Shown piece after piece: positions 15,001-39,555 of a stretch of 64,000 nucleotides of DNA. The position numbers and the translations under genes were made by a program. The notes below the pieces were generated by a model that saw nothing but the letters and a program-made list of their open reading frames with translations, ran no database searches and was not told the DNA's origin. The DNA is taken from contig DAOPYQ010000003.1 of assembly GCA_035352955.1 (NCBI GenBank), positions 208,206 to 272,205 of the forward strand, in the 5' to 3' direction. Origin of the DNA: Candidatus Omnitrophota bacterium (GTDB taxonomy: Bacteria; Omnitrophota; Omnitrophia; Omnitrophales; Aquincolibacteriaceae). The number at the start of each line of letters is the position of its first letter. The first letter of the stretch is position 1.

Positions 15001-18000
15001 GCGGTCGCAGCGCGATCGAGCATTTCCTGGGGCACACCCGCGGCCTGCAACTGTAAAAGGACCTTCTGGTGAAGAGCCGTATCAGCCATCACTTTCCTTA
15101 GAGCAGCGATCCACTGGGCTTCCGTAATAGAATTGAGCTGGGCCGGAGTAACCGTAGCGGGATCCAGACCCAGAGCATTCAAAATGAGCGCGTCGCTCGC
15201 ACTCCCGGAAAGCACCGCCGCCGCAAGCGACCGCGAATTGACCTTCAAGGAAAGATTGGCCGTCACATTCCGGTTAACAGCCTTCCTGTCCGGATTTGTG
15301 TCATCCTTCAACGCTGCCCGGAGTTTTGCGGCACCCCGCTTGATATAAGCTTCGATCGAAGATCGGGAGCCCAAAAGGAACGGCCGGCCGCTGCGCGTGT
15401 GTACTTCCACCGCATCCGGATCCGCACCGTGAAAATCTCCGGCGCCGTTCCCCGGCGTGCCGTCCTCGCCATACCCCGTAAAAGAGCCGAGCATCGGAAC
15501 GTTCCTGGCCGGCTTGCGGTCTCCGGGCCAATAGGAAATCATCATGCGCTCGTGCCCCTCGACATACATTCCCTGTTCATCATCAAAATAACCGAGATAT
15601 TTCCAGTAAGCCTGCGCCCGCTTATGAAGTTCTTTCATCATCACTTCGGCCGTCATGTCCCCGGTCTTGGAATCCGTGATCTTGGCTACCCAGCGGGCAC
15701 CCGCCTGAAGCACGACCCGGGCCTGTTTAAAATTGCTCCCGATCAGGATCCTTGCCAGCGAATTCACGACCTTATCCAGATCTTCCGGTCCGCCATCCAT
15801 GAGCCAGGGTTGAGCGGTCAGCACCAGTTCCCCTTTTTCAAAGGCATACTTTACGCCTTTCGGCAATTTCTTGAGCATATTGGCCAAAAGGACATCGTTC
15901 AGATCCAGCACCCGGATCCTTTTCTGGAGGGCGGTTTCCCGTTCGGCTATGCTCTCTTTCCAGTTTTGGATCGCACCGGCGTAAGTCTTTTCAAGCGCGT
16001 CACGGTTCAGCGATCCGATCCCTGCCCGAAGGGAGGCTTCTTCAATTCTTGCGTTGTTGATCTCTTGTTCCGTCTTCAGGAGAGCCTTCTCACCCGCATT
16101 GACCTCGTAGATCATCCCCAAAACCGTCTTGCTCGCACGGGAGAACGACCTCTCCAACCGAATCTTCCGCTGCGACAACGCTTCTTTTTCCGCTCCGGGA
16201 TCCATCCCTTTAAGCGCATCGGTCGTCTTCTCCAAATCCGTCTCGATCGTTTCCATCTCCAGCTTTGCGGCTTCCAGAGAGGATATCCTGTCAATGAGTT
16301 TGCAAATGTCCTCGAGCTTCGCCTGTTCATCCTTCTGTTCCTGAATGTCCAGCGCCAGCTTCTTTTTATCTTCCCCGTCGGGCAATCTCGCCAGCTGCTC
16401 GTTCATTTTCTTGAGATTGTCCTTGAGCTCCTTGATCCGAGCCTCGACCAAAGCGACCGTCTCGTATTTAACTTCCCTGGGAAGACCTTTCACAAGATCC
16501 TTCAGCTCTTTCCCGGCGGCATCCAAAACAACATCGGCCGAGGCCTCGATCTTCGCGGGTATATTGCGACGAGGCGTGTCGTCCGTAAGAAGGTCGTTAA
16601 GCGCCGCCGCCAGCTGATCTTTGGTTGCGCGGTCGATCACCTCGGCATAGGTTCTCCCCATAACGCCAAGCCCCACGAGCCTTTCGATAATCTTGTCGTT
16701 CGTCTTCCTGAAAGAAGCATTTTTCAACATAGCTTTAAGACCCGCGACACGGGCGTCGGGGATATCCGCCGCGGTAAACGCTATCGATCCCGCAAAGGTT
16801 CCGGCAAGACGTACTTGTTGGCGATGATTTTCGTACAAAGCCAACGCGGCATCCGCTGCGGCCACAAGTTGCGTCAGCAAGGGATCTCCGGGATTAAGAG
16901 CGAGCCTCTGCCGGAGAACGATCCCCTGAACAAATGCTTGCGCGGTAAATATATCGGCGTTGCTTTGTTCAATCTCTCCTTCCGGTGCCTTCGTCCGGTC
17001 TGCCGCGGGGATATTCTGGAAAACCCGGAGCAGGCCGATCTCATTTTGCAGACGTAAAATATCGGCCTTTTGAACCGCTGTACGCGTGGCCTCGGGTATC
17101 GCAAGAAGCGGCGCGACGGCGGTCTGTCGCTCCGCCACAAGGGCCTCAACCTCATCCACGGACAGTTCAAAAGAAATTCCGTTCGTTGCCGCAAAACCCT
17201 GATAGAGACCCGCCCTGGCGCGGGTCAGATTAAGGGCGCCGGTCAACTCCTCTTTCGTAGCGCTGTCGATCAGGACCGAATCATCCGTAACGGGTTTTTT
17301 CTTTTGTATTTCCCTGATCTTTCTCAGACTTGCGATCACAACCTGATTGATCTGCGCGTTGCTGGGATCCTTAAGCGCCGCGCGCAAAGCAGCTTCGTCC
17401 ACCGCGTCCTGGGAGATGAGGCCGCTGTTGGCCACCTTATCGATATCCAGAGCTTCCTGAAGGACCGCGTCAAGCTCGGGTTCAGACATTTCCCAATTCT
17501 TCCGCTCCTGAAGGGCCCTCTTTCTCGAAGCAAGCGCTTTTTTTGCGGCGGAAATTTCCGCGGAAGTTTTCCCGTCGGCTCTCATCGTGTTGATTGCATT
17601 CGCGTCCGCCAGGATCGCCTGTTCTTCCTCATGGATCTCCGCCTGTTCGTCAGCCGGAATATTCCTTTTCCCGGAATCAATGTCCCCCCTGACAAGACCG
17701 CTATACCGGTCATTCGCCATCCATACCGCCAGAAGGAACGGAACAGCGACCAGGGGAAGGCTCCACCAGTTCAACACAAACCACGCCACGATCGGCCCCC
17801 ATCCCAAAAACGCGATCCCGGCAAAATAGCCCCAGGCCGTGATCCCTGCGGCGACAAGACCGGTCAGCAAAAAGAACCCTTTCTGTTGCGCCAGGAGCGT
17901 GGCCCAAAAAGTTTCGCTTAAGCTGTTATACATTGACTTATAAATGAACATGAAGAGCACGACAGCCACCGCCGAAATAGCGACCGCCCACGGCGTGACC

Positions 18001-21000
18001 ACTCCCAGGGCCCAGAAAATAAAGATAAGATCGGTAAACCCGAAAAGAAATTTCCCGACCACCATGCGGAAATCGGCCCATTTCCTGTTCGTGATCCAGG
18101 CTCTTACCTGAGCCGCTTTTTCAGCTTTCACATCCGCCCGCAACTCCGCTCGCACTGAAGATTGGGCCAACGCTGAACCATAAATTTGATCAAGGAGGCC
18201 ATAGTTCAGGCTCCGAATTTCTTCTTTGCCCGGCAGGCCTTCATCCGCCGCAGTCTCGAAAGCGCTCCGAACCGCGGGATCAATACCCCGGTTCGAGATA
18301 GTTTGCGCTATATCGTTTAATCGGCGTTCGGCATCGGCCAACGCATTTCCAGCTCGTTCAACCTTGCGCCCATCAAAGAAGACCGCCATCCTGGCTTTCG
18401 TCACATCAAAATACCACTCGCCCTTTTGGGACAACCAATCGAACACGTTAGAAACATATTCGAGAACTTCACGGATCGTTTCCACACGGAAAGGCCAAAT
18501 GACCGGCCGCAACGCCTTAACCTGATCCCAACGATGGTCTATCTCGCTGCGAACCCGGGTCTGCAAATAATCCCTATCGGCCCGGCTGGTCGCCTGATCA
18601 CGTTGTTCAGATTCAAACTCAGCTCTGAGGATCTTGCTACGGGATATGGCTTCTATCCACTGTTCCACTAACCTGTCGACTTTGGCAGGTTCCAAACCTT
18701 TGGCGATCAAGGCTTGCTTCAAATCCTCGATACTTTCAATTCGTTGAAGCAACCGCTGCATCTCCAACGAGAGTTGTGTCCTGTTAATCTGACCGGAAAG
18801 AAGCTGCGGCAGATCCGTACGATCAAGAACCTTATTAAGCGCAAATGCCATTAATGAACCATTGTCCTGTCTTTTCAGATTGCGCAGAATTTTCTCAAAG
18901 AAAGACGTCTTAGCGAGTTCTCCTGATATAAGGCGGTCGCTAGCCCTATCTTTTCCAAGCTCACTATTTAAGGCAGCGATATCCATTTGGGCCGGCGTAA
19001 ATCTGACTGCCCGGGTCATATATTGGTACTTGGCAAATTTAAAAATCACCCGGAAGAGCAGCGCCGCAAAAGCGGCCGCGACACCATAGAAGAAGATCTG
19101 CTGAAGAGGGGCTTCGACTCGGCTGAAGTTCAGGAAATCGGGCAACTTATGTTCCGTGTTGCTCCACGGAAGCCTGAAATATTTATTCCCGGCATCGAAA
19201 TTGATCCCTTTCGAGAAAAAGGTCTTTTGCCCCTGCTTGCCCGGGATCTTCTCCGCGGGCGCAACCAGGTCCATCCAGTCCATGTTCCCACGCTGGGTGA
19301 TCGCAGCCGCCTTGTCCGTCAGGATCTGCTCGCGGGCATTCAGGTCGGTTTTGGGAATATACGGCACCAAAACCCCGTTCTTGTCCCGGGAAGAAAGAAG
19401 GATTTCATAAAGACCCAGTTGCTTCGCCGGGTCGGGATTCTGGAGATCCTCAAAGACTGCGATCCAGAGCGGTGACCCGAGCTTTGGCTTCGGCCGGGGA
19501 TTCGAAACGATCCTTCGTTCATTCTCAGCCTGATAGGACACGTCCAGCAGGCGCTGGTATTTGTCCGTCACACGCTGCATAAAATTGAAAAGATCGAGCG
19601 GCGTGATCGCCCCCTTATCGAGAAGCGCCTGGACACGGGCTTCAAGAGCCCGGAGCTGGATCGCCTTAAGCTCCGGATCTTCCTTCCATTTTTCCTCTTG
19701 GGTCCTTTCAATACTGATCTTCAGAGAATCGCTGTAGATCCGGTTGTCATTGAACCCTTTGTCCAGAGTGTTATCGATCCCGGTCTGACGCTCGTCCTTA
19801 ATGAAACCTTCCCGACTGTACCGGGCCGCCGCGGGAGTTTCCGCTTCGACTCCTTCGGGAAGAAGTTTGTAGAGGTCCATCGCCCCGTCCTGGCCGAAAA
19901 ATCCACCGAACAACGCAGGAACAAGCCTCGCGCCAAGCGTAGACTGCCAGGCAACGGGATCGGGCTGAGCGGCAAGCCCCACGTCGAGGAGGCTGTCCGC
20001 TTCAAAAAGGATCCTGCGGATATCGGGATCCGGGTTCCCGGCCGCTTTGGCACGGGCATACATATCTTTGGCAAGATCCAGCCACTGATCAAGGAAGGCC
20101 TGAGGGATCCCGCGGTTCGCGCTCCCCTCCGCGATCCTCTGGAGTTCTTTTTCGAATTTTTCCTCCGTCGCAAAGAACGGGACGGCGGCCCGCTGCCTCT
20201 CCGAAATGATCCCCGCAACGCCCTTGGTCCCGCGGATCCCGTCAAACCTCGTCCTTAACGAATCCTCCCGAGCCTTAACATCACTGAATTTTTTCAGTTG
20301 TACCTTGATCTCCTCAAGAAGATTTTCGGGATCGCCGTCTTCCGGCGAGAACACGTTTTTCCCGTCATCACTCGTTTTCCAAAATCCATTCGCCTTAACG
20401 GTCGCCCGGTCCAGGACTTCCTTGGACCGGTGGAACACCTTGGCCTTCACAATACGGTCCTTGACCTTGTCGAGAGACTCGTATCCCATATCCTTCAGAA
20501 TACGCGGCATGATATAACCGTTCAGGAACAATATTTCATCCGCCGAATACCCCGTCCGGAGCATCTCCCCGGCGAACAATTCCAGCTCGGTATTGTCGAA
20601 GAGGATCGGGGAATCTTTCAAAGCGCCGGCCTCCTTATCGTTCAGGACGTTTCGCCGGTCGCCAAGGACATTAAAGGCCTCTTCAAGAACCACGTCATAG
20701 GGCGCGGTCTGATAGATCCCCTTCACGGCATCAAGTCGCGCTTGACGTTTGTCTTCGATCGCCTTGCGGCTGTTGGAAAATTCGTATTCCAGGTTCTGCT
20801 GCTCCCCCGAACGCTCGCGAGCCTGGCGGTCCTTCTGGACGCGGTAATTTTTAAGAAACCAGTCCGCGTAATCACTCAGGAATTTTTCTTCGCCGAGGTT
20901 CGACCGCCCGGAAAGTCTCGAGAGATCGCTCACCGGACCGTAAGCCGCACGTTCCAGAGATTCCTTGGCGTCTTTCAGCGCGACCATCAGTTCATAGAAG

Positions 21001-24000
21001 ATGGCTTCCGCCTCCGCCGGAGAAACTCCCATCGCATCGATCTTCGCCTTCTGGGCAACCCCCCAATCCATCCCGAAAACGCTCCGGGAGGCCGCCTCTT
21101 CCTGGATCACAGGAAGGTCCATCCCAAAGATCTGGCGGTAAAGGAACCGGTAAGCCCGCATCGACTCATATCCGGGCGCCGGCCGGGTGTCCGTGTTCGT
21201 GTAAAGTTCCGTCGAATACTTATCGACAAGATTCTGGATCGCGCGCGCCGTGCGGAGATCGGCCATTTTGTTGCCCTTCTCGCTGATCGTCAAAGACGCC
21301 CCTCGCGCACCGCGGACAAGCCCGGGCAACGCTTCCGGAGAAGAAAATGTTCCGTAGGTTTTGTAAAGCACCGCGTCCACGATCGCCGCATCCGCCAACC
21401 ACTGATAAAGACGTTTCGGGAGTTCCCCCGGCTTTTTATCAAAGAACTTCGCCCCGTTCTCCTGGATCTGAAGCTCGCGGGACACGGTCCCAAAGATCTT
21501 TTCGATCGGCCATTTAGCGTGATGCTTCAGCACCCAATCTCTGTTGACCGGGTTCCCGTCCTTGTCTTCCATGATACCAAGATTGTTCAATCGCATGGCA
21601 AGCTCGGCAGGGAAATCGACCGCCACGTCTTTATAAGGATTGCCGGTGATCTCGCGGCCGGTCACCGCCGCAGCCAGCAACCCGCGGCCGGTCAAGAGGT
21701 TCGCGTAGGCATTCCGTGTCTCAATGGCCTTCGCCCGGCCCTTCACCGGATCGGACTCCACTTCTTCGCGAAGCAATACCACACGGGAATAAGCTGCCAG
21801 GTCGCCGCGCGGCAAGCTTTGAACGGGGAGCATATCCTCTTGCTCGAGTTGTTTTGCCTCATCCGGTCCCACGCGATCGTCCACGACCGGGTAAAGCGAG
21901 TTCGCGGCCTGCAGGAACATTTCGATCCCGACGCGTTCCTCGATCTTCTGACTTGCTTTTTTGGGATCCGCGGGATCCGCAAGCCCCCAACGAACCTGTT
22001 CGCCAACCCACGCCTTCGCGTCATCGATCGTGTAAGCCTCTTCCTTCAGCCCCGGACGATGATCTTTCCCTTCGATCCTGGCCGCCATCCGCTGGCGTTC
22101 CCCTTCAAGCATCCAGAACGGCTTCGCGGCGGGATTCTTGGTGTATCCCTCGAGTTCCGTGCTGAGATCCTTGCCGGCTGTTTCCTTGGCATTAAGCACC
22201 GTCTTGACCCAACGGTAATATGTGGGAGGTTCCAGTTTTTCCAGACCCGGCCGCGCATGCCGTAGCTCCTGGATCATCGTGTCCTCGGCATCCAACTCGG
22301 TCCGCTTGACGGGAAGATTGATATCGGGGAGACGGCTCGCGTCATAGATCTTCACCCGGCGATCGAGAACTTCTTTGGCCTTATCAAGGATCTGATGGGG
22401 GCTGACATCCTTGTTCTCAGAACCTTTCAAGGGCAGTCCTTCTTTTTCGATCTGACGAAGGATCTCCACATCTGTCGCCATGATCAAGCCGGAAGTGGCA
22501 CGTTTATCCTTCTCCATGGCCTTGAATTCGCCGGTATCCTTGTCCGTCGCCTTGAGATATTCTCTGGCGTCCTTATCAAATTCTTTCCCCATGAGAACAT
22601 AGAAAAGCGTCCAGGCACGTCCTTCATTCTCAGGAAGGATCGCACCGTCCGCTTCCAGGATCCCGTCGAACATATCCCCTTTTCCCTTACCGAGCTGGGT
22701 CGAAAGGGCAAAAAGCAATCCGAAGGCCTTCCCTTCCTGGTCATACGAAAGATCATAGGTTTTCCGCGCCTCACTTCCGGTCCAGGAGTTCGGTCCCGTC
22801 AGGGATTTCAGCGAATCGCTCAAGTTCAGCGCGACGCGGACCGTGGCCTTCAACTCGGTAAGACGGCTCGCAACCGAGCGCGACAAATACGCTTTCCGGT
22901 CGGCTTCTCTTTCAAAATTGGTCCCGTTCAGAAGATCGTCCAAAAGGCCCATCGCAGTGCCCATCTCGACGCCAAAACGGATATCGTCAAGGTTCTGACG
23001 CATCCGGGCCTTAAGGTCCGCGATGTTCTGATCCGTCAGGGTGATCTCGCCCCGCGCGTGGCGGTCGAGGAGCTTCTGAACTTCACGAGCGGGCGCGGCC
23101 CCGGGATGAAGGATCAACTGTTCGTCGGCAAGAAAGACCGGCTGTCTCACATGCCCGTTGGAGAGCGTGACGGGTTCCCTCATGGTCTGCATCAGTTGGG
23201 CCACGATGTACCCGACCGCGGGCCATTCTTCGTTCGAGATCTGGCGGAGCGCCTGGATCCTCATCAACGATTCATCGAACGCGCGGATCTTCATTTCGCT
23301 CGGGTGATCTTCGAGAGCGGTCACCAGCTTCCCGTCCTTGAAATGTCCGCGCACCATCGAAAGGAATTCCATCGCCGCCGGCCGATTCGTGCTGAAATCC
23401 ATCATCCGGCGTCCCTGCAACTGTCCGACGAGTTTGTTGAAATTGTAGGAGGCCATCATCTGCTCGACCTCGACACGGATCTCCGGATCGTTCAGCATGG
23501 CTTCCGTCAGTTCGACGCCCCTCATCTTGGCGTAAACCGACCAGGCCAGAATATTGCCGATCTCATACGGGTCGTTCACGCTGAGCGGAATACCCTTCGC
23601 CCGGTAGACCTTATCGAGAACGATTTTGGTCTTCGGCATGGATTCGATCAGATCGCCGACCCAATTCATGAGCGCGGCATCGTCTTTAGCGTTGATGTTC
23701 CGGAGCAACTCGGGATCATCCTTCACCATGTCGAACATGCGGGCGAAGAAATCCGCGAACCCGATCTCGCCGAAATCGATCCCGGCATCGCGCAGGGACT
23801 CCTTGAGAAGACCCGACATCACCACCGGCTCATTCCAGTCCTGCGAGTACAGATTCCCCCATTTATCCCCGGGAAGAAGCATGGTCCCGCCGGCCTCCGC
23901 CTTCGCGAGAAGTTTGGCCTTGGCAGCACGGGCATAAAATTCTCCGAGCGGGATGATCCAACGCTCGTTCAGTTGCTCCGGGGTGAGGGTTTTGAGCAAA

Positions 24001-27000
24001 TTATGGCGTTCCGCCACGCGACCGAGCTGGTTTGCAAAAAGGATCTTCAGATTCGCCGGAAGATTTCCCTTCCCCATCTTCTCAAGCAAATAGTCCGCCC
24101 GATCCTTCAGTGCCGGATAGAGAAGTAATTTATCGTCGATGACCTGCGACACGATCTTGCCGTCCGGAAGTTTCTTCGGCATCAGAACCTCGAGATCCAT
24201 CGATTCGATCACGCGCCCCTCTTCGATCGGAGCCCGCTCGGCCTTGACCGCGGCCTTCGGCGCCCCCTCTGAGGTCGCCGCAACATCAAAGGCATTCTTC
24301 AACCGGGCCTCAAGCCCCTCGACACGGGCCTTCGCCCGGAGCACATCCTGCTCCCGGATATCCGTCATAATCTCGGAAGCAAAAAAGAAGATCCCGGCCA
24401 GCGCCGATCCGCTGATCGACCGGTCCAAAGCCGCCCGATAATCGTTGCGCGCCAATTCAAGCTCGGCGCTGATCTGCTCACGGGTCTGGTTCGGCGTTCT
24501 GCCAAAAGCTCTTTCGACTCCCGCAAGCGCCCGGGACTGAGACCTGAGCGCCAAATCCTCGGCTAGTAACCGGGACCACCCGGACGAAAAACCAGAAACT
24601 CCGGAGGAAAGTTCTTCGACGACGTTTTTATAAACGAGAGACCGGCGCTCCGTCTCGACCTGTCCCAGCCTGCGGTTGATCTTTTGCCGGGTTTCATCCA
24701 GCTTCTCGGCAAAGGCTTTTTCCATTTTTGCTTCGGCTGTTTTCGGGTCTCTGCCATAATCACCGCGGAACCCGTCCAGAAATTTCTCGGCATCCTTCAG
24801 ATCCAGTTCCCCGCTCATGAACAGACCTGCGTTCGGCGCAAGAAACCGGCTCTTAAGCTCCGAAAAAACCTTGTCGTCTTTCAGGAACTTCTCGAGATCG
24901 CCCCGGACCTGTTCGAGACCGGTTTTTCCGGCAATATAATCGCGCTGGCTCCGGAGACCGCTCTTCCCGTCGGCCCAGATCCCGTCCATCCACCGGCTCA
25001 TCGCGACAGGGCGCTGCGCCTTGGGAATATTGTATTTGTCAAAAAGCTCCGTCTGGGCCTTCTGGAACGCGCTGACCCGCGCTTCGGTCTCCTTGGGAGC
25101 CAAAGCTTTCTCGGCCACGGGTTCGGAGGTCACGAGAAGCCCGCCCTCGTACCTCGCCTTTCCGACCGGCAAACCCTCCATGGAAAGTCCCAAGATCTTC
25201 GGGTCGATCTTGTTGCGGGTGAGAAAATCGACCAGGTCGATCTCCGCGCCGCGATGATCGAAGTAAGCAAAGTGAAATGCCCGCTGAGCGTTCTGAACTT
25301 CGTTGAGATAATTTTTGAAATAATCGAGGCCCTGGTTCCCCTTGAGAACGTTCTGGAGGGCCGTTTCATAAGCACCCTCACCCGTCACGGCGGCAAGCCT
25401 CTCGTCATAGATGGTGACGAGCCTTCCGGTGGATTCAAAATAGTGCGCTTTGGACCAGAGCTCCTGCTCGAAATTTTGCCGGTCTTTGGCATCCATAAGC
25501 TTCATTTTCTCAAGCAATAAGGCATTCTCCTTGAGCGACGACCACCAATCCCCGCCCCAAAGCTGGATGGAAGTCCCGGCCGTAATGTCCTGATTGAGGA
25601 CCTGCTGGCCGTCCGCATTCAGAAGACCGAAACGGGCCCAAACGCTCGCCTGTCGCGTCATGATCTGCTCGCGAGTGATATTAAGACGTTTGATCACTCC
25701 TTGGGTGTCCCGGACCTCGGGATTTTTTTCCGATAACTTGGCCGCATCGATCTTCCCCGTGTTGATGTCCTTGAGAAGTCTGTCGACGCCCTTGATCCCG
25801 AAATCGGTCTGGGAACCGAGGACCACGGACTCAATATCAAGGGAGAACCCCGTCGCTTTATAGAAATTGCTCCGGGCTTCCAGGACGGAACGCTCGGCTT
25901 CGAGGATCCGGTTGGCCATCAGGAGCAACCGTTCCTGGGACGCCATTTTCTCCTGATCGGTCGCCTCGAGGGTCTGCACCTTCAGCGCGTGCGCCCGCTC
26001 CACGAGCGCTTTCACCTGCCGCTGCTCCTCCGGGATAAGCCGGGTATACAAGTGTTTTTCCGCCTCGTATTTATTGAGAGCCTTGTAGAGATCGTGCTTT
26101 TGGTCCTCAAGCTTCGTCTCGACATCGTCCCGGGTCTTCTGATCGATCGAATCCCGCTTTTGCCCTTCAAAATCCCAGATCAGTTCGCCGAGATAGAATT
26201 GCGCCTTTACAGAAAGCGTCTGGTCCGTGTAGCCCCCGCTACGCTGCCGCCCCGCCTCAAAAAGAGCGTCTCCTTCATTGAACCCCGAGCCGACCACGCC
26301 CATTTGCGTGCGGCTCTTCTGCCTGGCAAGATACTGGTTGATCTCCATATCCAGCCCCGCGATCTTGTAAGGCACAGTCTCTTTCGCGATCTCTTCAACG
26401 GTCTTTCCGGCGGCTTTTCCGGCTCCTACAACCTCGCCACCCGTGGTTCCCCCCGCAACCTCCTGGTCGATCATCGTGTGATCAATACCCCGCTGGAACA
26501 ACCGGTCTTTCTGGTCGCGAACGCTGCGCTTGAGGCTCGCCAGCTGCTCGTTCCAGCGCTCAAGCTCCGTCATATCGCGTTCCCGGGTACTACGGTCGCC
26601 GCTCGTGAAAAGATTTGAAAAAACACGGAACCAGCCCCTGTCACCGGCTTTTTCCTTCTCATACGCGATCCGCGTTTCGGTGCTCTTGATCAGCTTGAGG
26701 CCCGTGCGGTACTCATCTTCAGCCGCTTCCTGGTCCGCCATAAAACGGTCCAAGGCGTCCTTGGAACCAAGAGCAATTACCTGGTAATCGCGCTGCAAAC
26801 CGCGGATCCTGTTCTCGCGGCCTTTGAGATCGTAGAACAAGCGCGACGCGAGCGGTCCCGCCAAGGGAATCAGGTCCACCACTGAGGCAGCGCCATAGCC
26901 AAGCCCGTTCCAGAACGGTCCGACCCCGGCTTTTCCGTCTCCGTTCGTGTCCCAGAAGTAACCCGCCGCAACGCCCCCGTCGAGGACAGACATCGTCTCA

Positions 27001-30000
27001 CGGCGGACCCCCACGCGCAGGTTCCAGGCATAAGCCTGAAGGCCCAGCATGTTATCGATATCCGGCATCGCGGCCATCTTCTCAAGCGCCAAGCGGATCG
27101 TTTCAAACTCGGCATAAAATTTCGGATAAGAACCGGAATTAAGGAGATAGCGGCTCAAAAGGAAAGCATTCCCCGCCGCAACGGAATCCTGCGTGGCATG
27201 CATCAACCGATGATACTGGGACGCGCGATCCTGCCCCCCGGCAAGAACCTCGCTATAAGCTCTCGAAGAGGCGATTAACTGCGCACGAACCCCAGCGATC
27301 TCCCGGACGGAGTTCTGTTTCTCTCTTTGAACGTTCGGGTTCTTTTCAGCCGCCGCGTCCCGTGCGAGGTGCTGTTCCACGGCTTCGAGCTTGTTCACAA
27401 GGACATTCTGATCGGCCACAAGCTTTTCGATCCCGGCCTTGCCGGAAGCCAGGACGGTACCGTCCCCGGCAACGACTCCGGGAAAAGGATCGAGAATATT
27501 TTCCGCCTGGGCAGAATCCTTGGCGGCGATCTTGGCGGAGGCTAAAAGCCCGTTCAGAGGAAATTCCGTCCCGTTGACCAGCTGCCGAAGCGCGCGCATG
27601 GTTCCCGCATAATTCGAACGCGTCGCGAGTAATTTTGTTTCGGCCTGCCCGACATTGGCTTCGGCGGCAGCCAGCTGGACTTTCAACTCATCTCGAGGCT
27701 CTGCCGCGCCGCGGGCTTTCGTATCAAGATCCACGGTCTCGCGAAGTTTCTCAAGAGAACGCCTCTCACTCGAAAGCTGATTGCCGGCGGCAGTCACGAG
27801 GTCCCTTTGATAGCGAAGAAGACTTGTCAAACTCCTCACCGCGGCTTCGAGCCGCTGCGCGGCATCATCAAAATACTGGTCCGCGCTCTCGCCGGAAAGG
27901 CGGGTCTGGACCTTTTGTGAAAAATAGGAAATATTCATGAGGGTCGCTTTAATGCCGACGCCGATCTCGCCTTTCAGCTGATCCAGGCCGCTGACGTTCC
28001 AACCCGTGGAATTATCATAGCTGACCCCGTAAAGCGCGGAAGCAAAGACCCGTCCCCACTCAACGGTCCGGGTCTGCAGGGCATCCACATCCTTTTTCTC
28101 TCGCGCGGTGCTGAGCTGGGTCTTCGCAGCGGCTTCATAGAGCGCGCGGTCGAGCAAATCCGCGTTTTTCCCGCCGTCCGCATCGTAAAAATCAAGCCAA
28201 CTGTCCGCGTCCTCGATACGTGACTGATCTTCCTCCGCAAATATTTTCGCGTCATTTTCCGTGAAGGCCTGCTCCCGCGACACAGGCGCCTTCCATTCAA
28301 ATGACCGCTCCGACAATCCTGCGTCCGCAAGAGCCTTGCGGATATATTCGGCATGTTTGGGATGTTTTTGCTGGATCTCATCAAAACGCGCCTTGAGGAT
28401 CTTGAGCGCCTGATCCGCCTGGCCGATGCGCATCCGGACCAGTTCCTGGTCTTTGACCGTCCCTTTCATCTGGCTTTCCATCGACAGCGAGTTGATGTTA
28501 GCGCTCAGATAATCGACGGGCTGGCGTTGACCTTCGTTCTCTTTGGTCACTCGCCCGGCATCCACGGCACCGATCGACTCGTTGAACATTTTTGCTTTTT
28601 GCATCGCGGCGACGACTTTTTCCTGGGCCGCAAAATCGGCGGCCTGCCGCTGGTGATCCCGTCTGAGCCGGTCCAGTTGCCGGAAATCGTCATCAAGCTG
28701 ATTCTGAAGCTGACGGATCTGGTCGACCCCGTTGCGCACGTCATACTGGAATTGTTCCTTTTCGACCCCGCGATCAAAAAGGTCCTGATTGCTTAACCAA
28801 AGATCGGCTTTGAGCCCGGCCCTCAGGGTACCGTCCGTCGCGATCGAAACTTCAGGAATCGCGACCGTCGCGTTCACGCCCGCAAGCGGCTTTTCCTGCG
28901 CGATCCCGGATTTGATCCGGGCGGCCGCGGCAAGGATCCGCGCTTCAATGTAGTTACGGCTCAGGCCCATTCCTTCCATGCTTTCCTGGACGTTTTCCAT
29001 CGTGAACGCCGCCGCCGGGTCCTGGATCTCGGCATTCGGTCGATGATTGGTCAAACGCTTGATCTCCACGAGACGGGCTTCCCGGCTCGCGCGCAGGACC
29101 TCTTTCTCGCCTTCGATCCCCTTGATCTTGCTGTCAATGATCCTGAACGATTCGGGGGTCTTCGTCACACCCGGCTGCGACTGAATGTCGGTCTTGATGC
29201 CTTTTAGCCGGAAAATCATTCGATCCGCCATCGTCATTTGATCGTTCAGAAGAGCGACCTCATAAGCATTTTCATAAAAAGAGCGTAACCGGGTATCCGC
29301 GACAAGTTTGGTGTCCGCTTCCCGGGACAAAAGTTCGGCGGCGCGGACTTTGGTCTCCCAAGTACGGCTGAGATTCACGGGCTCGAAACGGAACACAAGC
29401 TCTCCGTTGACCAAGTCGGCCGTTCCGACTTCTTTCACATAGGTTTGTTGCTCGGTCGTAAGCTTCGTCCGGGCAGCAGCGGCGGTCGGGATATGGATCA
29501 CCGTCCCCTGATCGGGATCCGCACTGGGCGTATAATCCAGTTTCGCAGGAGTTGTCGTAGTCGTCGTGACCGTGATCTTCGTTTTTTCCTGACGAGGCGT
29601 CCATTTCACGTTCGCGTAAAGTTGGAACCACTTCTGCAGAATGCCCATCGCCTCGAGATTCGATTTCGCGATCTCCTGATCCTTCTTGGCCATCAGAAGG
29701 TCCAGATTGTTCGCCAAAAGATCCTTCGCCATCCCGTCAAGAGTAGGCGCCATTTTGTCCTGGGTGGTAGCCCACGTGGTGCCTGCGGCCAACCCGGAAA
29801 AACCGGCGATCGGAAAATCCTGCACGCTCGTGGCGGTACGATCCACAAAAGATTTTGGAACAAACGTTTTTTCGCGCGCTCCTGGCGCAACAAAAGTATT
29901 GGCAGCACCGCTCATCGCGGGGGCCGGCGGCGTGGCCGCCTCCGGGTTCAGGAGCGGTGTCATAGGCGCAACCTCTTCGGTCGCGGGCACGCCGGTCACG

Positions 30001-33000
30001 CCGACCATCTTTTGGGCCAACTGGTCCAGCGTCTCTTCGACCATTTTGAGGTCTTGGTCGTTTCGAACGCTCCGCTTTAAATAATCCACGCGATCGTGGA
30101 ATGCGGCCCGGTTTTTGTCATCCTTGATCATGCTTTCATTGCGCTTCATGGTGGCATCGAAAACTTCCAGCGCGAGTTCCAGCTCCGCAGGGACTTTTTC
30201 TTTGACTTCCTGAACCTTCTGGATGTCTTGCGGAACGCGCGGGACCGCGGTTCCCATAACTTTCGCCGGGGTTGGAGTCACTTTCGCCGGGATCGGCGCA
30301 GATGTCACTTTCTTGATCGCTTCGGGCGAAAGCAGATCCCCGGAACCGGGCAACACCACCGGCGGCAACTCACGCTGCCTCGCCGTCGCCGGTTTCGCGG
30401 CTTCCGCCGGATTCACCGTTCCGGTTTTCGAAACCGCCTCCGTCCCGGAAACATTTTCTTTCGCCGCGTCCTCTCTGGCAAATTTGTCCGCGAGCGTCCG
30501 TTCTTCATCCGTCATCGGTCCCACAGGCTCGGGGGCAAGCGGGATCACAGTCCCCTTGGATTCCTTGGCAGGCATCAATCCGACGGCGCTTCCGAGGAAT
30601 TTCACGACCTCCACAGGCCATCCTGAAAAAGTCATGCCCTTCCCCGTCGCGGAACTTCCGGTTTTCTCCGGAACATAATCCAAACGGGCCGGCCCCTCAG
30701 GAGCGATCAACATCTTCGAGGCCTCGAATTCAAGATCGGTGAAGATCTGCTGAGGATCCGCGCCGTTCTTCAGGGCTTCTCTCATCGTGACCGTCGATTC
30801 ATAGAAAGCAGTATCCCGGTATTGCGGATCCACCTGGTCCCTGAGGTTTGCCACACGCCGGTCAAACTCATCCACCGGACCCGCCCATTCCTCGCTCTTG
30901 GCCGGCTCCGCGATCACAGCGCCGGCCCCGGCAGGGCCTTCCACCATAATGCTCAGAACACGGACGGCATCCGTGGTGGCTTGCTCCGCTTCAGTCCCCC
31001 TCAGTGCGGCCGTCTTCATATCGGCCCCAAAGAGTTCTACGGAACCGCTCACTTCGATCGTCTCGTTATACGGGTTCAGGTTCCCGCCGTTCATAAGCCA
31101 GTAAAATTTGTTCTCTTCCTTCCCGGTCGTCCGGTTCAAAGCGCCCTTGGCCTGGCCGCCGATATAAGACAGAACATACGGGACCTCTTCCCGGGGAATG
31201 GCCACCACACCGCTCTTCACCCGGTTAAGACGCTCGGAAAAAATCCCCCCGATCGCACGCAACGGTTCCGACGCGGGATCCACCGAATACCGCACATAAA
31301 GCTTCCCATCCGTCCCGAGAAAATAATTCCCGCTCTCGAAATGATGCCCAAAACCGCCGGCGTCCTTCATGCTTTCAAGAACGTCATCCCGATAACTCGA
31401 CGGCAACGAGCCACTCTTCGAAACGCTCTTCAACCACGACTCCAGATGCGCCTTCGCCGCCTCCGGCGTCACAGCAGCCGGCTCCACCACGATCTTCTGC
31501 GCGACCGCCGGCTCCGCCACTTTTACTTCCGTGACAGCCAACGGCGTTTCCGCCTTCGGCGCAGCCGCGGATTCAGCTTTAGCCGCAACAGCTTTTTCAG
31601 CAACCTTGGGGGTTTCGACCTTCACTTCCGTTCTCGGCGCAACCACGGATTCTTCCGCGCGCTGGTTTACCCCGCTCAACCGATCCGCAACATTGGCCAG
31701 TTTTCCTACCGTAGCAACAACCACCGAGGGCATCATCCTGACCCCGACGCCCCCGATACCCGCTGCGGGCTGCTTCGAAGTTTCCGGAACGGTCTTGGCG
31801 CCGGACCCCTTCGCTGAGATCGACGTCCCGGCGGCCATCCGTGACTGGTACGCCCGGAACTGTTCTAAAAGTATTTCAAAGTGGGATACAGGATCTCCGT
31901 TGGGACGGCTCGTGCGATACACCGACCAGCCCGCCAGAGCGGCTTCAAGATCCTTGATCCGTTCGCGGGGAATCTTTTGCGTGGACTCCCGATTAGCGCC
32001 AAAAAGCTTTTCCACTGTAAACCGGACTGCAATGTCCCCGTCCTTGTCGACAAAATAAGCTCCCGGATTATATGAAGTCATGGTCCAGAGAGCCTTGCGC
32101 ATCGCGCTTTTCTCGTCACTCGGAATATCGTTGGAATTCTTCACCCACGTTTCCACGGACTCACGCGCTTTCACCTGAGCCTCGGTATCGAACGACACGT
32201 GGTCCGGAGCCCTGTCGTTCCGCACGATGTCTTCCCCAAGCTTCACAAAACTGCCCGGGATCGATTTCACTCCGCGGACAAGGCTGGTCCCGGCTTTGGC
32301 GACGGCATGCTCGACCGTCTGAACCGCGCCGCGCTTCTGATCGGCCGGAGCATTCTTGAGAACCTCGGTCGTTTTCGCGTAGGCTTCGATCGCTCCGAGC
32401 ATTTCCTTGTCGTCTAAACGAACCAAAAGGATCGGTGTTCCACCTGCCGCACGCTTGAAGATCCACCACGACCGGTTCTTCCTGGCAACTTCCAGTGCTT
32501 CCCGCGACGATTTCCCTTTCGCGAGCTCCCCCGCGATCGTGTTAAAAACCCGGTCATAATCCTCGGGAGCGGCGTTGCTGAAGCTCTTGTCCAGGATCAC
32601 CTTCTTCAGATGATCTTTCGCAGCCTCTTGGGCATTTTCCAAATCACCCACTTTAAATTCCTTCACAACCGCCGCCGGCGTTTCCACAGCCACGGGTTTC
32701 TCCGCAACTCTGGGGGCTTCGGTTTTTACTTCCGCCTTCGGCGCAACCACGGGTTCAGCTTTAGCCACGACGGGTTTTTCAGCAACCTTGGGAGTTTCGA
32801 TTTTCACTTCCGCTTTCGGCGCAACCACGGGCTCAGCCTTGGCCACGACGGGTTTTTCAGCAACCTTGGGAGTTTCGATTTTCACTTCCGCTTTCGGCGC
32901 AACCACGGGCGCAACCTTAACAACAACGGGCTCAGCCTTAGCCACGACGGGTTTTTCCGCGACTTTCGCAGCAATCACCGGCTGCGGCATTTCAGCCCTC

Positions 33001-36000
33001 AGCTGATTCATGGCCATCGTGACATATTCTGCTTTCCCCGGACGCGGACCGGTGCCGAAAACTCTTTCGGCTTCGGATTCGACCTTTTTCTCCGCCGCGG
33101 CGATCCTTGCCTGCCAAAGCTGGTACGGGGTCATCGGTTCCGAGCCGGCATCCCCTTCAAAAACATGCCGTCCCACAACCTTACCCGCTTCGTCCCTAGC
33201 AATCTTGACGGTCACCTGGACGTTTCCGGTCGTCTTGTCCGCCACTCTCGTCACTCCGGCCGCAGCCGTAAGCCGGTTCGCCCAGAAAAGTTTGGACATC
33301 TTTAAATCAACGAGCTTTTTTCCTAAGGCGTTCTTGGTAGCAGCATCGGTAGCCGCCGCCCAATCCCGCTCCATGTCCCGGACATCTTCTCCCAAACGCC
33401 GTTCACGCCATGGAGCAATCAAGCCGTCCAAGACCAAATGCTCCCCGCCTACCACCGCGCCAACCACTCCGGAGTTCACGGTATTCGTGGTAATCCCAAG
33501 CAGCCCCACCGCCCCAAGGGTATCCGCGAACGTGGGCTGTTCACCGCTTCTTTGCATCTCGGCAAGCTTCACCTGTTTGTCGTGGTCCCCTTCAATGGCT
33601 TTCACAAGCGGCGCGATAAAAGTAATATTGAGCCATTCATCCAGTTTTTCCGCATAGCTAACGATCACGCTGATCTCATGAGTGACGAACCACATGCTGA
33701 ACGTCCCGAAGACCATCCCGATCCAGAATTTCCTGCTCGTCAGAAGATTGTGCCTCGCCTGCCGTTTGACGACGGCTTCCGGCGCGAGCTCAGAGAGCCG
33801 GGAGTCGATCGGGGAACCATGCTGGGCCAAAAGACCGAGAAGAGCCTCGTCCACCGAAGAACTAATGACGCTTGAATCCAAACGGTCGAGATCAAAAGCC
33901 TTTGCGGAAAGGTACTGCTCCAGAAGCCGAAGAAGCATGACTTTTTGGTCCGGCGACAAATCACTTTTCTGAACTGACTGGACGAACAGGACGAGTTCCT
34001 GCGCCGAACCTGACTCCAGCAGAAGCCCCTGATTTTTAAGGGTCCGTACCGCCTCTTGAATTGCACGGGGATCGCGTGGATTAAGCGAAGGGTTCAGGGT
34101 CCTGAGGATCGTGTTCGTCGCGACACGGACTCTAAGCTGAAGCATGTTCTGTTTCAGCTGGGTAGAATACTGGAGAAGAAAGTTCAGCATTCCGGAACTG
34201 CCGAACGCACCGATCGTAAAATGAAATGTTTGCGATTTGATGAAATCGACGGCCGGAGTATTCCAGACCAACCCGTTGTTCAAGAGGTCGAATTGCGGGC
34301 CCATGTGCGGCATGGGAATATTAATACCGAATACATTCAGCGCCCGGGTCGCGAGATCCGCTCTCCCGGCCGTTTCAACCCCCGCATGCAAAAGCGTCGG
34401 ATCAAGCCCCATATGCATCCCGCCAAACACCGCGAGGCCCAGCAACGTGTGGATCACGATCTTCCGGACAATCCAGCCGGTCGTCACGTCCTTCCCGCTT
34501 TTCCGGAGCTCCTGGTACTGGCGGTAATCACGGATCGCCATAAAAGACCAGACCCCCGCCATCACGATCAAAAACACGGGGAGATTGGTCCCGACCAAAG
34601 TCAGGGCAACACCGCTTACCTGGCTGTAGAGCATCAGACGGCCGCGGTTCTTGATAAAATTGGATAGCCCGGCGATGCCGCTCATCTGGAGCGCTACCCA
34701 CATGTAATACCCCGGAGGGGTGCGCTGCAGAACCAGCATTTTTCCGTTGAAGGTTTTTTCACTTTGAAACCGGCTCCAGAAACCTTTCCCCGCTTCGTCC
34801 CGGATCTCTTTTTCGGAGGCCTTGATCGTCGCTTGGGCCATTTCGTCGGAAAGCCAGCGCTGGTTCCTGCCGCCGAGCCAGAAATACTGGATCGGGATAC
34901 GGATGAACTGGATGAAGAAACCGTCCAGAAGATGATAACCGACACCGAAAAGGATGTGAGCTGTTTTGCCGAGCACGAACGCGATACCCTTTTTGAAAAA
35001 GGCTCCTCGGCCGCCGGCTATCTGAACTTCCTTACGAGCCTCTGCTTTGACGCCTTCCCAGAAAAGAAAAACCACGGCACCAGCGATCGATCCAACGATC
35101 GCAATCGGCAGAATGGCCGCCATGCCGGTCACTCCCAAGGTGACCGCAATAGCCCCCGTCAAGATCCCGCTCAAAATCCCGGTAACCAGTACGCCTACCC
35201 GGCGTTTGTCCACTTCGTCAGAGGATTCTCCGAACGCCTTGCTCTTATGGATCCGGACAAATTCCGAAAATTCCTTGATCGACAAATTGACCTTGGTCCG
35301 CCACCGGAGTGTGGAGTCCGAGATCTTAAGCTCGCCATACTTGCCGGCCTCAGGATTCGCGACTTTACCTCCTATATAGAAGGTCTCCCCCAGGGCCGTC
35401 TTAATAGCCCATGCCTGCGTTCCGGGCATTTGTTTGACTTCAAAGCCAAGCATAATGCCAAGAGCCCGCCAGAACGCTACGGCAAATCCTATAGCGGTAA
35501 ACCCGAAAACGATTGGGACCGAAAAACCCAAAAAGCTGAAGATCGCCGCGAGAACAATCCCCACTCCCGTAAACACGGCCAGTGTCTTGAGAGCACGGAC
35601 GCTCAGCAGCCGAAACAGCAGTGTGGGTCCGGCCTCGGCAAGAGCCGCCCCGCCCGGAGCGTTCAAAATACGGCCATATTCAACGGCAACCCTTTCCCGG
35701 ACTTCCGCTTCTCCCGTCGTTGCCTGTACTGCAACAGGCGCGGTGGCGGCTTGAGCTGCCGGCGCAGGGGCCGGAGCGGCAGCGGCGGCAGCTTCTCTTG
35801 CCGCAGCTTCATCCATGAGTTTCCTTTGGGCTATTTTCTCGGCAACCTTCGCCTGGACCGCCTCAATTTTCAGGCGGACCATATAAACGCTCAGCGGAAT
35901 CTGATGTTCGACTAGCAAGCGGATCTTCGGAGCGATCTCGGTCGCGAGTTTGTCCGCGCCATACCATATAAGGATCGTGTTCAGCGTATCCTGCGGGATC

Positions 36001-38606: not shown

Positions 38607-39050
38607 CGGATTGCCGTCCTCCCTTTAAATTAAGACTGGGATATTTGATTAGCAAACAAGCCTAGAATAAACTTATTTTAAAGTCTTATAAACCTCACTA
38701 TGAATATACACAATCAACTTACATTTGTCAAATAAGTATTAATTTTTTTTAAGGCCATAAGTCATTGAAAATAAATGATTTATGAAAATAGAGAAATTTG
38801 ACCTTTTAAATTTTTTAGACTCCCTATTACTCCTTATAGCAATGTAAAACAATTGACTTTAGATATTTTTTCGTCTATTCGATTTGGAATTGAAACATAT
38901 CATACTACTTTGATAAAGTTTTAGAAAATAAATTTGTTTTAATAGACTACCTCACCCCGCGGTTATTTTGACGATCGAAGAAAGACAAGCTTCAAGAAAA
39001 ATCCGTCAAGGAAAGATTTCAACGCATCGAAGCAAACAAAACGTCCTGCA
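38607..39050 (-). promoter_or_regulatory. AT-rich leader and putative promoter region of the giant gene
   Basis: Seen in sequence: about 400 bp that is conspicuously AT-rich against GC-rich surroundings. It contains no supportable ORF and ends at the giant-gene ATG. A candidate minus-strand -10 box TAAAAT (plus 38675-38680) sits about 70 nt upstream of the ATG. No convincing -35 box was found. The promoter assignment is an inference. Confidence 0.4.
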
Positions 39051-39051
39051 G

Positions 39052-39117
39052 AAAAAAAAAAAAAAAAAAAAATACCCGACAGCGAAAGACATCGGGTATT
39101 TTGGGTGGACCTGCCCT
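39052..39117 (-). terminator. Rho-independent terminator on the minus strand. Hairpin acccgaca...tgtcgggt followed by T21 (= plus-strand A21 at 39052-39072). Copy 1 of a duplicated 45-bp element (39073-39117)
   Basis: Seen in sequence: read on the minus strand the element is agggcaggtccacccaaaatacccgatgtctttcgctgtcgggta followed by 21 T. Stem is acccga/tcgggt with a 12-nt loop. Confidence 0.6.
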
Positions 39118-39273
39118 TTCCATTTCACTCCAAGGGCGATACAAAACATCGAGGGGAATCGGCTCCTTCGCTTGTCTCATAAAACAAGTCAAGCTGCGGT
39201 AGTCCACCCGCCCTTGAAACATGAAATCCCGTCATGTTTCAGACCAGGGCTTCTTTCAATCCCCCTTCAACTT

Positions 39274-39327
39274 AAACAAAAATACCCGACAGCGAAAGCT
39301 ATCGGGTATTTTGGGTGGACCTGCCCT
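39274..39327 (-). terminator. Rho-independent terminator on the minus strand immediately downstream of tRNA-Ala. Copy 2 of the 45-bp element (39283-39327, 2 mismatches to copy 1), followed on the minus strand by TTTTTGTTT
   Basis: Seen in sequence: tacccgacagcgaaagctatcgggtattttgggtggacctgccct on plus. On minus this reads as a hairpin plus a U-rich tract about 40 nt after the tRNA 3' end. Confidence 0.55.
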
Positions 39328-39366
39328 GAAGGGCTGGCCCAATAACCATTAATTTTTAAAAAAAAT

Positions 39367-39439
39367 TGGACCTGAGGGGAATCGAACCCCTGGCCTCCGC
39401 AATGCGAATGCGGCGCTCTCCCAGCTGAGCTACAGGCCC
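39367..39439 (-). tRNA. tRNA-Ala, anticodon CGC
   Basis: Seen in sequence: the rc is GGGCCTGTAGCTCAGCTGGGAGAGCGCCGCATTCGCATTGCGGAGGCCAGGGGTTCGATTCCCCTCAGGTCCA. It folds as a cloverleaf with a G3:U70 pair in the acceptor stem (the alanine identity element) and an anticodon loop TTCGCAT. It has GTTCGATTC in the T-arm and a discriminator A. CCA is not encoded. Confidence 0.9.
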
Positions 39440-39555
39440 TTGTCTCATTCTACTTTATCAAAGATTACAAGGACCAGTCCAATTAACCCTTCCTTCTCGA
39501 TGGAGAATTGGACAGGCCCACAACAACAGAGAAATTCAGTTGCAGCAGGGCGTTA

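Follow-up and report, generated by a model that had tools for sequence, protein, structure and literature searches.

tRNA-linked repeats (TLRs) have been known in Escherichia coli since 1978 (Egan and Landy 1978, as cited in PMC8144298). They end in 18-19 nt that match the 3' terminus of the preceding tRNA or rRNA gene exactly, one to five of them are present per locus, and most have so far remained without a function (PMC8144298). The small RNAs (sRNAs) rrA, rrB and rrF lie between the terminators T1 and T2 of rrn operons; they are transcribed when T1 is read through, and they undergo processing (PMC8144298). According to the summary in the same paper, 3'ETS-leuZ constitutes the 3' trailer transcribed from a tRNA operon and is set free by tRNA-processing nucleases. 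Here, we describe a stretch of 64,000 nt from a Candidatus Omnitrophota genome (contig DAOPYQ010000003.1; the whole stretch is referred to as the window), in which 760 nt separate a gene for tRNA-Ala with the anticodon CGC from a giant gene of ~14,000 codons (~42 kb). All features of interest reside on the minus strand. In the direction of transcription, tRNA-Ala(CGC) is followed by a two-hairpin unit (J+M), a terminator-like hairpin (T1), a structured module (type C), a second terminator-like hairpin (T1') with a tail of 21 T residues (T21), the AT-rich promoter region and the giant gene (Table 1). Judged by sequence, we rate the ensemble between the tRNA and the promoter as a conserved array of probable tRNA-Ala-derived RNAs that belongs to no known Rfam family and is of the kind of TLRs and 3'-trailer sRNAs; the terminator-like hairpins are of an ordinary kind, and so is the promoter region, apart from its striking AT-richness and strong conservation.

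The likeness to the E. coli elements is organisational. As in TLR loci, the modules lie in a tRNA operon directly 3' of a stable RNA gene (tRNA here, tRNA or 5S in E. coli) and are present in one to several copies per locus. The 3' end of type C repeats that of the upstream tRNA: in three related loci (L010, L018 and L020), the identity amounts to 18 nt (CGACTCTCCTCAGGTCCA), an insertion of 37 nt divides it into 11 and 8 nt in the window, and the M part of the first unit (M1) shares 8 nt alone. As with rrA, rrB and rrF, a small structured RNA is situated between two terminators or terminator-like hairpins with too little space for a promoter of its own, since the gap between T1 and type C amounts to 7-12 nt. 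The Omnitrophota modules differ from TLRs in that they are larger and contain covariation-supported helices that make use of the tRNA-derived segment. They also differ in that a second unit type, J+M, is present that is shared with the 5' leader of the tRNA; transcription and processing are assigned here by analogy. With 3'ETS-leuZ, type C would have in common that it is transcribed as the trailer of a tRNA operon and released by tRNA-processing nucleases; 3'ETS-leuZ, in turn, is a short base-pairing sponge devoid of tRNA 3'-end identity. The occurrence of the TLR hallmark in a distant uncultured phylum, here in the form of a module that carries the last 18 nt of the upstream tRNA, lies between two terminator-like hairpins and has covariation-supported helices, suggests that building small RNAs onto tRNA operons is a general route.

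Type C is a conserved structured module

A covariance model for type C was built from the sequences of five species. When run against 662 kb of sequence, comprising the window and 76 loci from GTDB genomes, it matched its five source sequences (the window and four loci) and nothing else. Altogether, type C is present in nine distinct species, with one copy per locus. In the alignment, 91% of the cells in helical positions are paired as compared with 41-50% when the partners are slid against each other, nine pairs have changed on both sides, and none of 500 shuffled alignments reaches the observed covariation score. Helix P1 consists of a purine-rich 5' strand and a copy of the 3' half of the tRNA T arm, and it tracks the T arm of the respective species: the two strands read GGGGGATTG/CGATTCCCC in the window and GGAGAGTCG/CGACTCTCC elsewhere. 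When the T21 tail is included in the folded sequence (39050-39275, minus strand), GAAGGGGGAUUGAAAGAAG on the purine-rich 5' side of type C is paired with the U-run in the minimum free energy (MFE) structure, and P1 is displaced; this pairing may be an artefact of how the folding program handles poly-U.

Two-hairpin units resemble the tRNA leader

The modules begin 26 nt past tRNA-Ala on the same strand. The helix of the J part is formed by the preceding GGTCCA plus 2-4 nt, which pair with the complementary nucleotides plus TGGGCC. The extension of this helix covaries (TTT/AAA, GTC/GAC, GTT/AAC and ATT/AAT; AT/AT in the window), and its loop is made up of conserved spacer or, in some species, of a second type of terminator. 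The J helix is followed by the M hairpin, and the unit terminates in GGGC-AGGTCCA. In the 3' unit of the window, the M hairpin has shrunk to a 4-bp stem with a tetraloop and, together with GGGCC/GGTCC, makes up a minihelix. Throughout an alignment of 14 J+M instances, 94% of the cells are paired versus 28-50% with slid partners, and six pairs have changed on both sides. In the window, the first 3' unit together with T1 folds with -39.9 kcal/mol (z score -7.3).

The 5' leader of tRNA-Ala (110 nt in the window) contains a J+M unit as well, with counterparts in L010, L016, L018, L020 and L058. It is for this reason that the units of the array look, at the level of sequence, like copies of the tRNA leader or spacer that are delimited by pieces of the tRNA ends. 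The leader unit starts with a copy of the first 8 nt of the tRNA (GGGCCTGT), and its M hairpin sequesters tRNA nt 1-4 and would compete with the acceptor stem. Four loci (L012 at positions 3395-3560, L014, L016 and L058) contain, directly 3' of the genuine tRNA, full-length paralogues of tRNA-Ala that we designate type I. They carry one or two hairpins in the D loop, in L016 and L058 also a hairpin in the T loop, and a closed hairpin (CCTGCC..GGCAGG) in place of the anticodon loop. Neither ARAGORN nor Rfam detects these type I paralogues.

Distribution of the arrays

The 3' acceptor strand of tRNA-Ala with its discriminator base, CAGGTCCA, recurs one to three times 3' of tRNA-Ala in the window as well as in L010, L012, L014, L016, L018, L020, L027 and L058. 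Metagenomes were also scanned, independently of the giant gene, with a pattern representing one module type, and 48 loci were returned. About ten of them contain real units and two are doubtful; the rest are chance matches in GC-rich coding DNA. In all five scan loci that allowed the test (L095, L096, L108, L109 and L125), the region for the N-terminus of the giant protein lies downstream of the units. The scan is not a census, as most of its returns are chance matches and as it missed the JGI contig of the window's own locus (Ga0116247_10000007), in which the pattern is present; the collection that was scanned is thus incomplete for this sample.

When the window region and 12 related loci were compared with Rfam release 15 at gathering and permissive thresholds, tRNA was the only family found over the arrays. 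ARAGORN reports tRNA-Ala as the sole tRNA or tmRNA (transfer-messenger RNA) gene of the window. An assignment of the modules as tRNA genes or pseudogenes was rejected, since neither ARAGORN nor the Rfam tRNA model finds a cloverleaf beyond the genuine tRNA-Ala in the window and its relatives. Within the 64 kb, no sequence was found at E <0.05 that could serve as an antisense target for the array of the window. In L020, array hairpins (3063-3108 and 3360-3400) are 89-90% antisense-complementary over 41-46 nt to positions 1473-1518, which lie 1.5 kb upstream in an unannotated open reading frame (ORF) of 250 amino acids; this match may be a relic that arose by chance or may mark an antisense target.

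The duplicated element consists of module ends and terminator-like hairpins

The first-pass annotation of this DNA had pointed out a duplicated 45-bp element, a run of 21 A and an AT-rich island between tRNA-Ala and the giant gene, and had explained them as two consecutive terminators, a length-variable switch and a possible insertion site. While the features themselves are real, most of the mechanistic ideas attached to them were not borne out. The 45-mer is present twice, at 39073-39117 (copy 1) and 39283-39327 (copy 2), and the copies differ only at its two N positions; copy 2, called 'upstream' in that annotation because of its higher plus-strand coordinates, is the one proximal to the tRNA. 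None would be expected from shuffled sequence, as against two in 64 kb. The ungapped repeat comprises 54 nt (39064-39117 and 39274-39327; 94% identity) and extends, past an indel, into a 'ccct..aagggc' hairpin. Its last 8 nt on the plus strand, TGGACCTG, are the reverse complement of CAGGTCCA, and an 11-nt copy of the T arm (CGATTCCCCTC) is located between the two 45-mers; the repeat is thus derived from the tRNA. Each copy is composed of a module end (AGGGC-AGGTCCA-CCC), AAAA and a terminator hairpin, and the repeat thus occurs twice because both modules share the same ending. Copy 2 also takes in the AGGTCCACCC tail of M1.

T1 is represented by 12 distinct versions, each of which begins 0-3 nt after GGTCCA and has a stem of ~15 bp including A4/T4 as well as a tail of T5-T8. 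Orthologous hairpins in L010, L014, L018, L020, L030, L095, L096, L109 and L120 exhibit compensatory changes such as TACCCGGTGGC/GCCGCCGGGTA, TTGCCCGGTGGC/GCCATCGGGCAA and ATTCCCAATGGT/GCCGTTGGGAAT. In 131 fetched loci, the T1 pattern was found at this array position alone, so the element proved to be locus-specific, as the first-pass annotation had supposed, and not dispersed. Both copies form a stable GC-containing stem-loop followed by a U-tract at the 3' end of a module, and structure rather than sequence is kept among the 12 orthologues and paralogues. With covarying stems of 13-15 bp that precede a T-run, and with a conserved position directly after the 3' end of a stable RNA, T1 and T1' resemble Rho-independent terminators, including the bidirectional A-tract/U-tract type, and are terminator-like by sequence. 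They differ from these in the T21 tail, where the orthologues have T5-T8, and in that copies 1 and 2 are paralogues with 94% identity, of which copy 2 bears T5. The two mismatches weaken copy 1 (-14.1 versus -21.9 kcal/mol). In L120, the layout is that of the window, i.e., unit, T1, type C with the extra hairpin and T1' with a T7 tail, while its two hairpins differ in sequence; the near identity of T1 and T1' in the window therefore points to recent copying or gene conversion. Of the earlier claim of two consecutive terminators, the terminator-like hairpins with U-tracts on the correct strand thus remain; they are not simply redundant, as each closes a tRNA-Ala-derived module of its own.

The T21 homopolymer is a feature of this lineage

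The run of 21 A on the plus strand was confirmed at 39052-39072. It is a strong outlier: elsewhere in the window, homopolymers do not exceed 8 nt, and 10 nt is the maximum in 598 kb of related Omnitrophota loci. T21 occupies the position of an ordinary terminator tail. Since the tails of all other T1 versions are T5-T8, it is best explained as a lineage-specific expansion, and since the longest T-run in the intergenic regions between tRNA-Ala and the giant gene of the relatives is 9 nt, it does not represent a conserved regulatory device. The locus of the window is near-identical in six other assemblies (L001-L006), which offer no comparative information beyond the tract length. Five assemblies give 21, 21, 21, 22 and 23 nt, a spread that is inseparable from homopolymer sequencing or assembly error and cannot be taken as biological variation. 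The contigs of L004 and L006 end at the equivalents of window positions 39084 and 39053, one of them 12 nt before the tract and the other inside it. In L002 (JGI Ga0116247_10000007, a contig of 448 kb), non-T to T substitutions accumulate over ~85 nt after the tract (equivalent to window positions 38966-39051); this T-biased stretch is found in that assembly alone and looks like a sequencing phasing artefact. For metagenomes of this organism, T21 is a breakpoint of assembly and a source of error.

The proposal that changes in tract length tune read-through into the giant gene finds no support in the T5-T8 tails of the relatives, in the position of the tract or in its 21-23 nt spread. T21 lies outside any conserved ORF and ~320 nt 5' of the -35 element of the giant gene, which is not the position of a phase-variable contingency locus, whose tract would sit in a coding sequence or between -35 and -10 and would switch expression as its length changes. 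To our knowledge, extending a U-tract beyond ~8-9 nt does not alter intrinsic termination.

The AT-rich block is the predicted promoter region of the giant gene

GC content drops to 0.235-0.295 over 38600-38999 (segments of 200 nt) as compared with ~0.55 in the flanks, in agreement with the AT-rich island reported before; 0.235 is the minimum of the 64 kb, and other intergenic regions have 0.43-0.50. In all tRNA-Ala-linked relatives examined, the GC minimum of the intergenic region (150 nt) is 0.18-0.30. We aligned the 420 nt 5' of the start codon from 21 species, to which the window aligns from ~38950 to the start codon. These ~330 bp contain -35 and -10 elements, a 5'-untranslated region (UTR) box and a Shine-Dalgarno sequence, so the block is not the scar of an insertion at a tRNA gene, as had been suspected from its composition. 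The alignment consensus also has a TGCTATAAGRAAT box, a TTATTTTnAAAAACTTTTTATTAA box, a 5'-UTR box of the form GAGGTTTATAAGnnTTTAAAATAAGTTT, and GAGGACGGCAATCCGATG at the start. By sequence, the AT-rich block represents a conserved promoter that belongs to the giant gene itself, is of the predicted sigma-70 type and comes with upstream boxes and 5' UTR; it is not foreign DNA. The 5'-UTR box and the start region GAGGACGGCAATCCGATGAT (38604-38623, minus strand) are conserved in the 21 species to a degree far above the needs of a Shine-Dalgarno interaction, which suggests an element for translational or RNA-level control. A conserved promoter, upstream boxes and a 5' UTR are now defined for one of the largest known bacterial genes, and this provides a concrete handle on the transcription and regulation of a gene of ~42 kb.

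Table 1 Features between the hydrolase gene and the giant gene, listed in the direction of transcription (positions in the window).
Feature	Position	Strand	Remarks
Hydrolase_4 gene	40389-39556	-	5'-most in order of transcription
Putative promoter of tRNA-Ala	39582-39555	-	Overlaps end of Hydrolase_4 gene; 10/12 matches in consensus scan
Leader J hairpin	39519-39506 / 39484-39471 (within 39436..39519)	-	GGGCCTGTCCAATT / AATTGGACTGGTCC; predicted fold of leader unit -37.1 kcal/mol
Leader M hairpin	39474-39436	-	3' strand includes tRNA nt 1-4
tRNA-Ala, anticodon CGC	39367-39439	-	ARAGORN; Rfam tRNA 68.1 bits
First 3' unit with J helix	39316..39372	-	J strands GGTCCAAT (39372-39365) / ATTGGGCC (39343-39336), AU loop; predicted by folding
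M1 minihelix	39340-39316	-	GGGCC-A-GCCC-TTCA-GGGC-A-GGTCC-A, then CCC; predicted by folding
T1, terminator-like hairpin with T5	39278-39312	-	15-bp stem, -21.9 kcal/mol; core of repeat copy 2
Type C module	39103..39271	-	~165 nt; covariance model R1 111 bits, E 4e-25
Type C P1	39265-39257 / 39159-39151	-	Second strand is copy of 3' half of tRNA T arm
Type C P2 hairpin	39250-39210	-	Long, GAAACATGA...TCATGTTTC
Type C P3	39208-39161	-	Variable
Type C extra hairpin	39137-39113	-	Inserted before final AGGTCCA; common to window, L014 and L120
Type C tail AGGTCCA-CCC	39112-39103	-	tRNA-Ala 3' sequence
T1', terminator-like hairpin with T21	39052-39102 (hairpin 39102-39069, tail 39072-39052)	-	13-bp stem, -14.1 kcal/mol; core of repeat copy 1
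Species-specific spacer	38951..39051	-	Moderately AT-rich; no conserved columns in 21 species
Conserved AT-rich regulatory region	38624..38950	-	21-species alignment; GC 0.235
Upstream box	38943-38908	-	21-species alignment
TGCTATAAGG box	38841-38830	-	21-species alignment
AT-rich UP-like stretch	38761-38732	-	Just 5' of -35
-35 element TTGACA	38731-38726	-	TTGAC invariant or nearly so; 11/12 matches in promoter scan
-10 element TATATT	38708-38703	-	Invariant or nearly so; 17 nt from -35
5'-UTR box	38696-38669	-	GAGGTTTATAAG..TTTAAAATAAGTTT; near-invariant in 21 species
Giant ORF	1..38606	-	Shine-Dalgarno GGGAGG 38623-38618, ATG 38606-38604; at least 12,868 codons, stopless, exits at window start

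Model for the array and alternative explanations

With a confidence slightly above even, we favour a model in which the operon of tRNA-Ala(CGC) has a 3' extension made up of an array of modules derived from the tRNA and its leader, after which the promoter of the giant gene follows. Transcription would begin at the tRNA promoter and T1 would be read through in part, its tail in the window being weak (T5, of which four T pair with A4). Type C would be produced as a 3' appendage of the tRNA-Ala transcript that ends at T1', and its tRNA-identical 3' end would allow the tRNA 3'-processing machinery to trim it. By analogy with the E. coli sRNAs, type C would be made by read-through and processed, and it may be functional as an RNA. 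Together, T1 and T1' may shield the promoter of the giant gene, located ~320 nt further on, from the strong transcription of the tRNA. One terminator was probably copied onto the other in this species, and T21 may have arisen by lineage-specific slippage from a T5-T8 tail.

Several observations weigh against this model. The MFE fold of the window sequence contains, in preference to the consensus P1, a long-range helix (GGGTGGACT/AGGTCCACC). The alignments underlying the covariation statistics for type C and J+M were fitted to a model or built by hand from related sequences, and the statistics therefore lean towards structure. In L008, L024 and L025, tRNA-Ala is followed by a plain terminator; type C is thus found only in some species of the clade and is dispensable. 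Units are tandemly amplified in L027 and L125, which a dynamic repeat would explain just as well as a functional RNA would. No sequence homology to the E. coli TLRs is apparent, as judged indirectly from the detection of tRNA alone by Rfam, a direct comparison with TLRs not having been run. Finally, the terminator scan taken by itself is not significant, with five sites as compared with 2.8 expected from shuffled sequence.

As an alternative, the array could be non-functional debris, left by decayed tandem duplications of tRNA-Ala and its leader or by integrase scars, with only the terminators being of relevance. The boundaries of the units, which are fragments of tRNA ends, and the resemblance of the M units to leader sequence plus tRNA nt 1-4 plus nt 66-73 would fit this, as would a copy number that varies by species, near-identical units within L027 and L125, and the patchy occurrence within the clade. 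Direct repeats of 18 nt of a tRNA 3' end are, moreover, typical of att sites, and here direct repeats of the tRNA 3' end stand beside a strongly AT-rich segment, just as in tRNA-associated genomic islands. We nevertheless consider debris rather unlikely, because type C, T1 and J+M can be aligned and their helices are kept by compensatory change among species in which the adjacent protein has diverged to 65-78% amino-acid identity, with P1 compensating even for the species-specific sequence of the T arm. In addition, the core of type C is absent from IMG/VR. The first-pass annotation had reported neither att-like direct repeats nor an integrase. The former statement does not hold, as direct repeats of the tRNA are present; the latter does, in so far as a screen confined to the 12 genes of the ~10 kb upstream in L001-L003 called no integrase. 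A genomic island integrated at the tRNA was rejected for the further reasons that the 'cargo' between the repeats is a conserved structured RNA of 150-200 nt, that the AT-rich segment is syntenic in 21 species, and that the order of hydrolase, tRNA and giant gene is conserved. It is likewise unlikely that the hairpins are plain redundant terminators that end tRNA-Ala transcription and insulate the giant gene, with T21 adjusting read-through and the AT-rich block dating from an old insertion at the tRNA. The hairpins and U-tracts on the correct strand, the outlying A21 with 21, 22 or 23 nt depending on the assembly, and the lowest GC content of the window speak for it. Against this, a conserved structured module occupies the stretch between the hairpins, each of which comes after a tRNA-like 3' end, in 21 species the AT-rich block is conserved along with promoter elements and synteny, and no other species has a T-run of more than 9 nt in this region; short-read homopolymer lengths are also unreliable, as the two contig breaks and the artefact in L002 illustrate.

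More far-reaching explanations assign a tRNA-like activity to the RNAs themselves. That type C, J+M and the type I paralogues constitute an undescribed family of tRNA-Ala-derived RNAs, matured by tRNA enzymes, acting as tRNA-like RNAs (substrates or decoys of RNase P and alanyl-tRNA synthetase, AlaRS, or permuted two-piece molecules) and confined to the vicinity of the giant gene in one Omnitrophota clade, appears decidedly unlikely to us. Still more improbable is the specific version in which the modules are cut by RNase P and charged by AlaRS on the M stem or on a permuted J acceptor, and serve as carriers of alanine without an anticodon or as decoys. Acceptor features are indeed retained: tRNA-Ala(CGC) has G3:U70 and A73 with CCA not encoded, and every unit of the array has kept GGGCC/GGTCC including the G.U pair, along with A73 and a U at position -1. 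However, the G.U is a legacy of the tRNA and is replaced by A-U where the J helix occurs in the leader. The order of 3' acceptor strand, loop and 5' acceptor strand in the J helix, again with G.U and A73, is that of permuted tRNA genes and of the precursors of two-piece tmRNA, and positions 39330-39391 (minus strand) gave a match to the Rfam family tmRNA_permuted with 25.4 bits and E 0.01. This match stays below the gathering score of 47 and arises because T arm, acceptor 3' strand, AU loop and the GGGCCAG of the next unit follow one another. Tag ORF, pseudoknots and P2 helix are missing and ARAGORN is negative, so a two-piece tmRNA was rejected. The type I paralogues of L012, L014, L016 and L058 retain the whole scaffold of tRNA-Ala, which would be in favour of tRNA-like molecules, whereas ARAGORN and the Rfam models for tRNA and tmRNA reject all modules, the M units are devoid of a T loop, CCA is inconsistent, and a standard one-piece tmRNA is present in the phylum (L038). 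Finally, the 45-mer and its hairpin could belong to a dispersed family resembling repetitive extragenic palindromes (REP) or miniature inverted-repeat transposable elements (MITE), to which we assign a close to negligible probability. Its hairpins are palindromic and intergenic, and an array hairpin of L020 has a 46-nt copy with 89% identity inside a coding sequence 1.5 kb away. This is set against two copies in 64 kb, both located here, and a T1 pattern confined to arrays in 131 loci, among which there is no complete genome of the species; type C furthermore occurs with one copy per locus in the 662 kb, and BLAST comparison of the arrays with the remainder of their own loci came up empty except in L016 and L020.

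Genomic context of the array and the giant gene

The '..ttgaagacaatcatcgaagattgtgTATAAT' of the putative tRNA promoter is also found 5' of tRNA-Ala in L012, L014, L021, L025, L027 and L045. A plus-strand ORF that spans part of the array (38968-39345, 125 amino acids) was rejected as a gene, since it lacks conservation as well as a significant Pfam match and the A-run would be translated into poly-Lys. On longer contigs, the product of the giant gene comprises 13,915-13,941 amino acids; its first 1000 residues yielded no Pfam match. The literature on giant genes of Omnitrophota mentions neither tRNA or promoter features nor modules like those of the array.

Homologues of the N-terminus were found in 76 other species by an alignment scan with one genome per species, and they carry Candidatus Omnitrophota names. 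Some genomes, e.g., CAZEFF01, CAYWRU01 and JAUYMS01, have two giant-gene loci. In about 20 of the 76 loci, tRNA-Ala(CGC) precedes the giant gene on the same strand, mostly at a distance of 275-1170 nt and in L036 at 2.8 kb. In other clades, its place at the giant-gene locus is taken by tRNA-Gly(CCC) or by tRNA-Val/tRNA-Asp; comparable arrays were looked for at the tRNA-Gly(CCC) loci and none were found. In L038 (515-894 and 2029-2198) and L064, tmRNA with tRNA-Val and tRNA-Asp, or else tRNA-Gly(CCC), lies 5' of the giant-gene homologue, and in many lineages the giant gene adjoins genes for stable RNAs.

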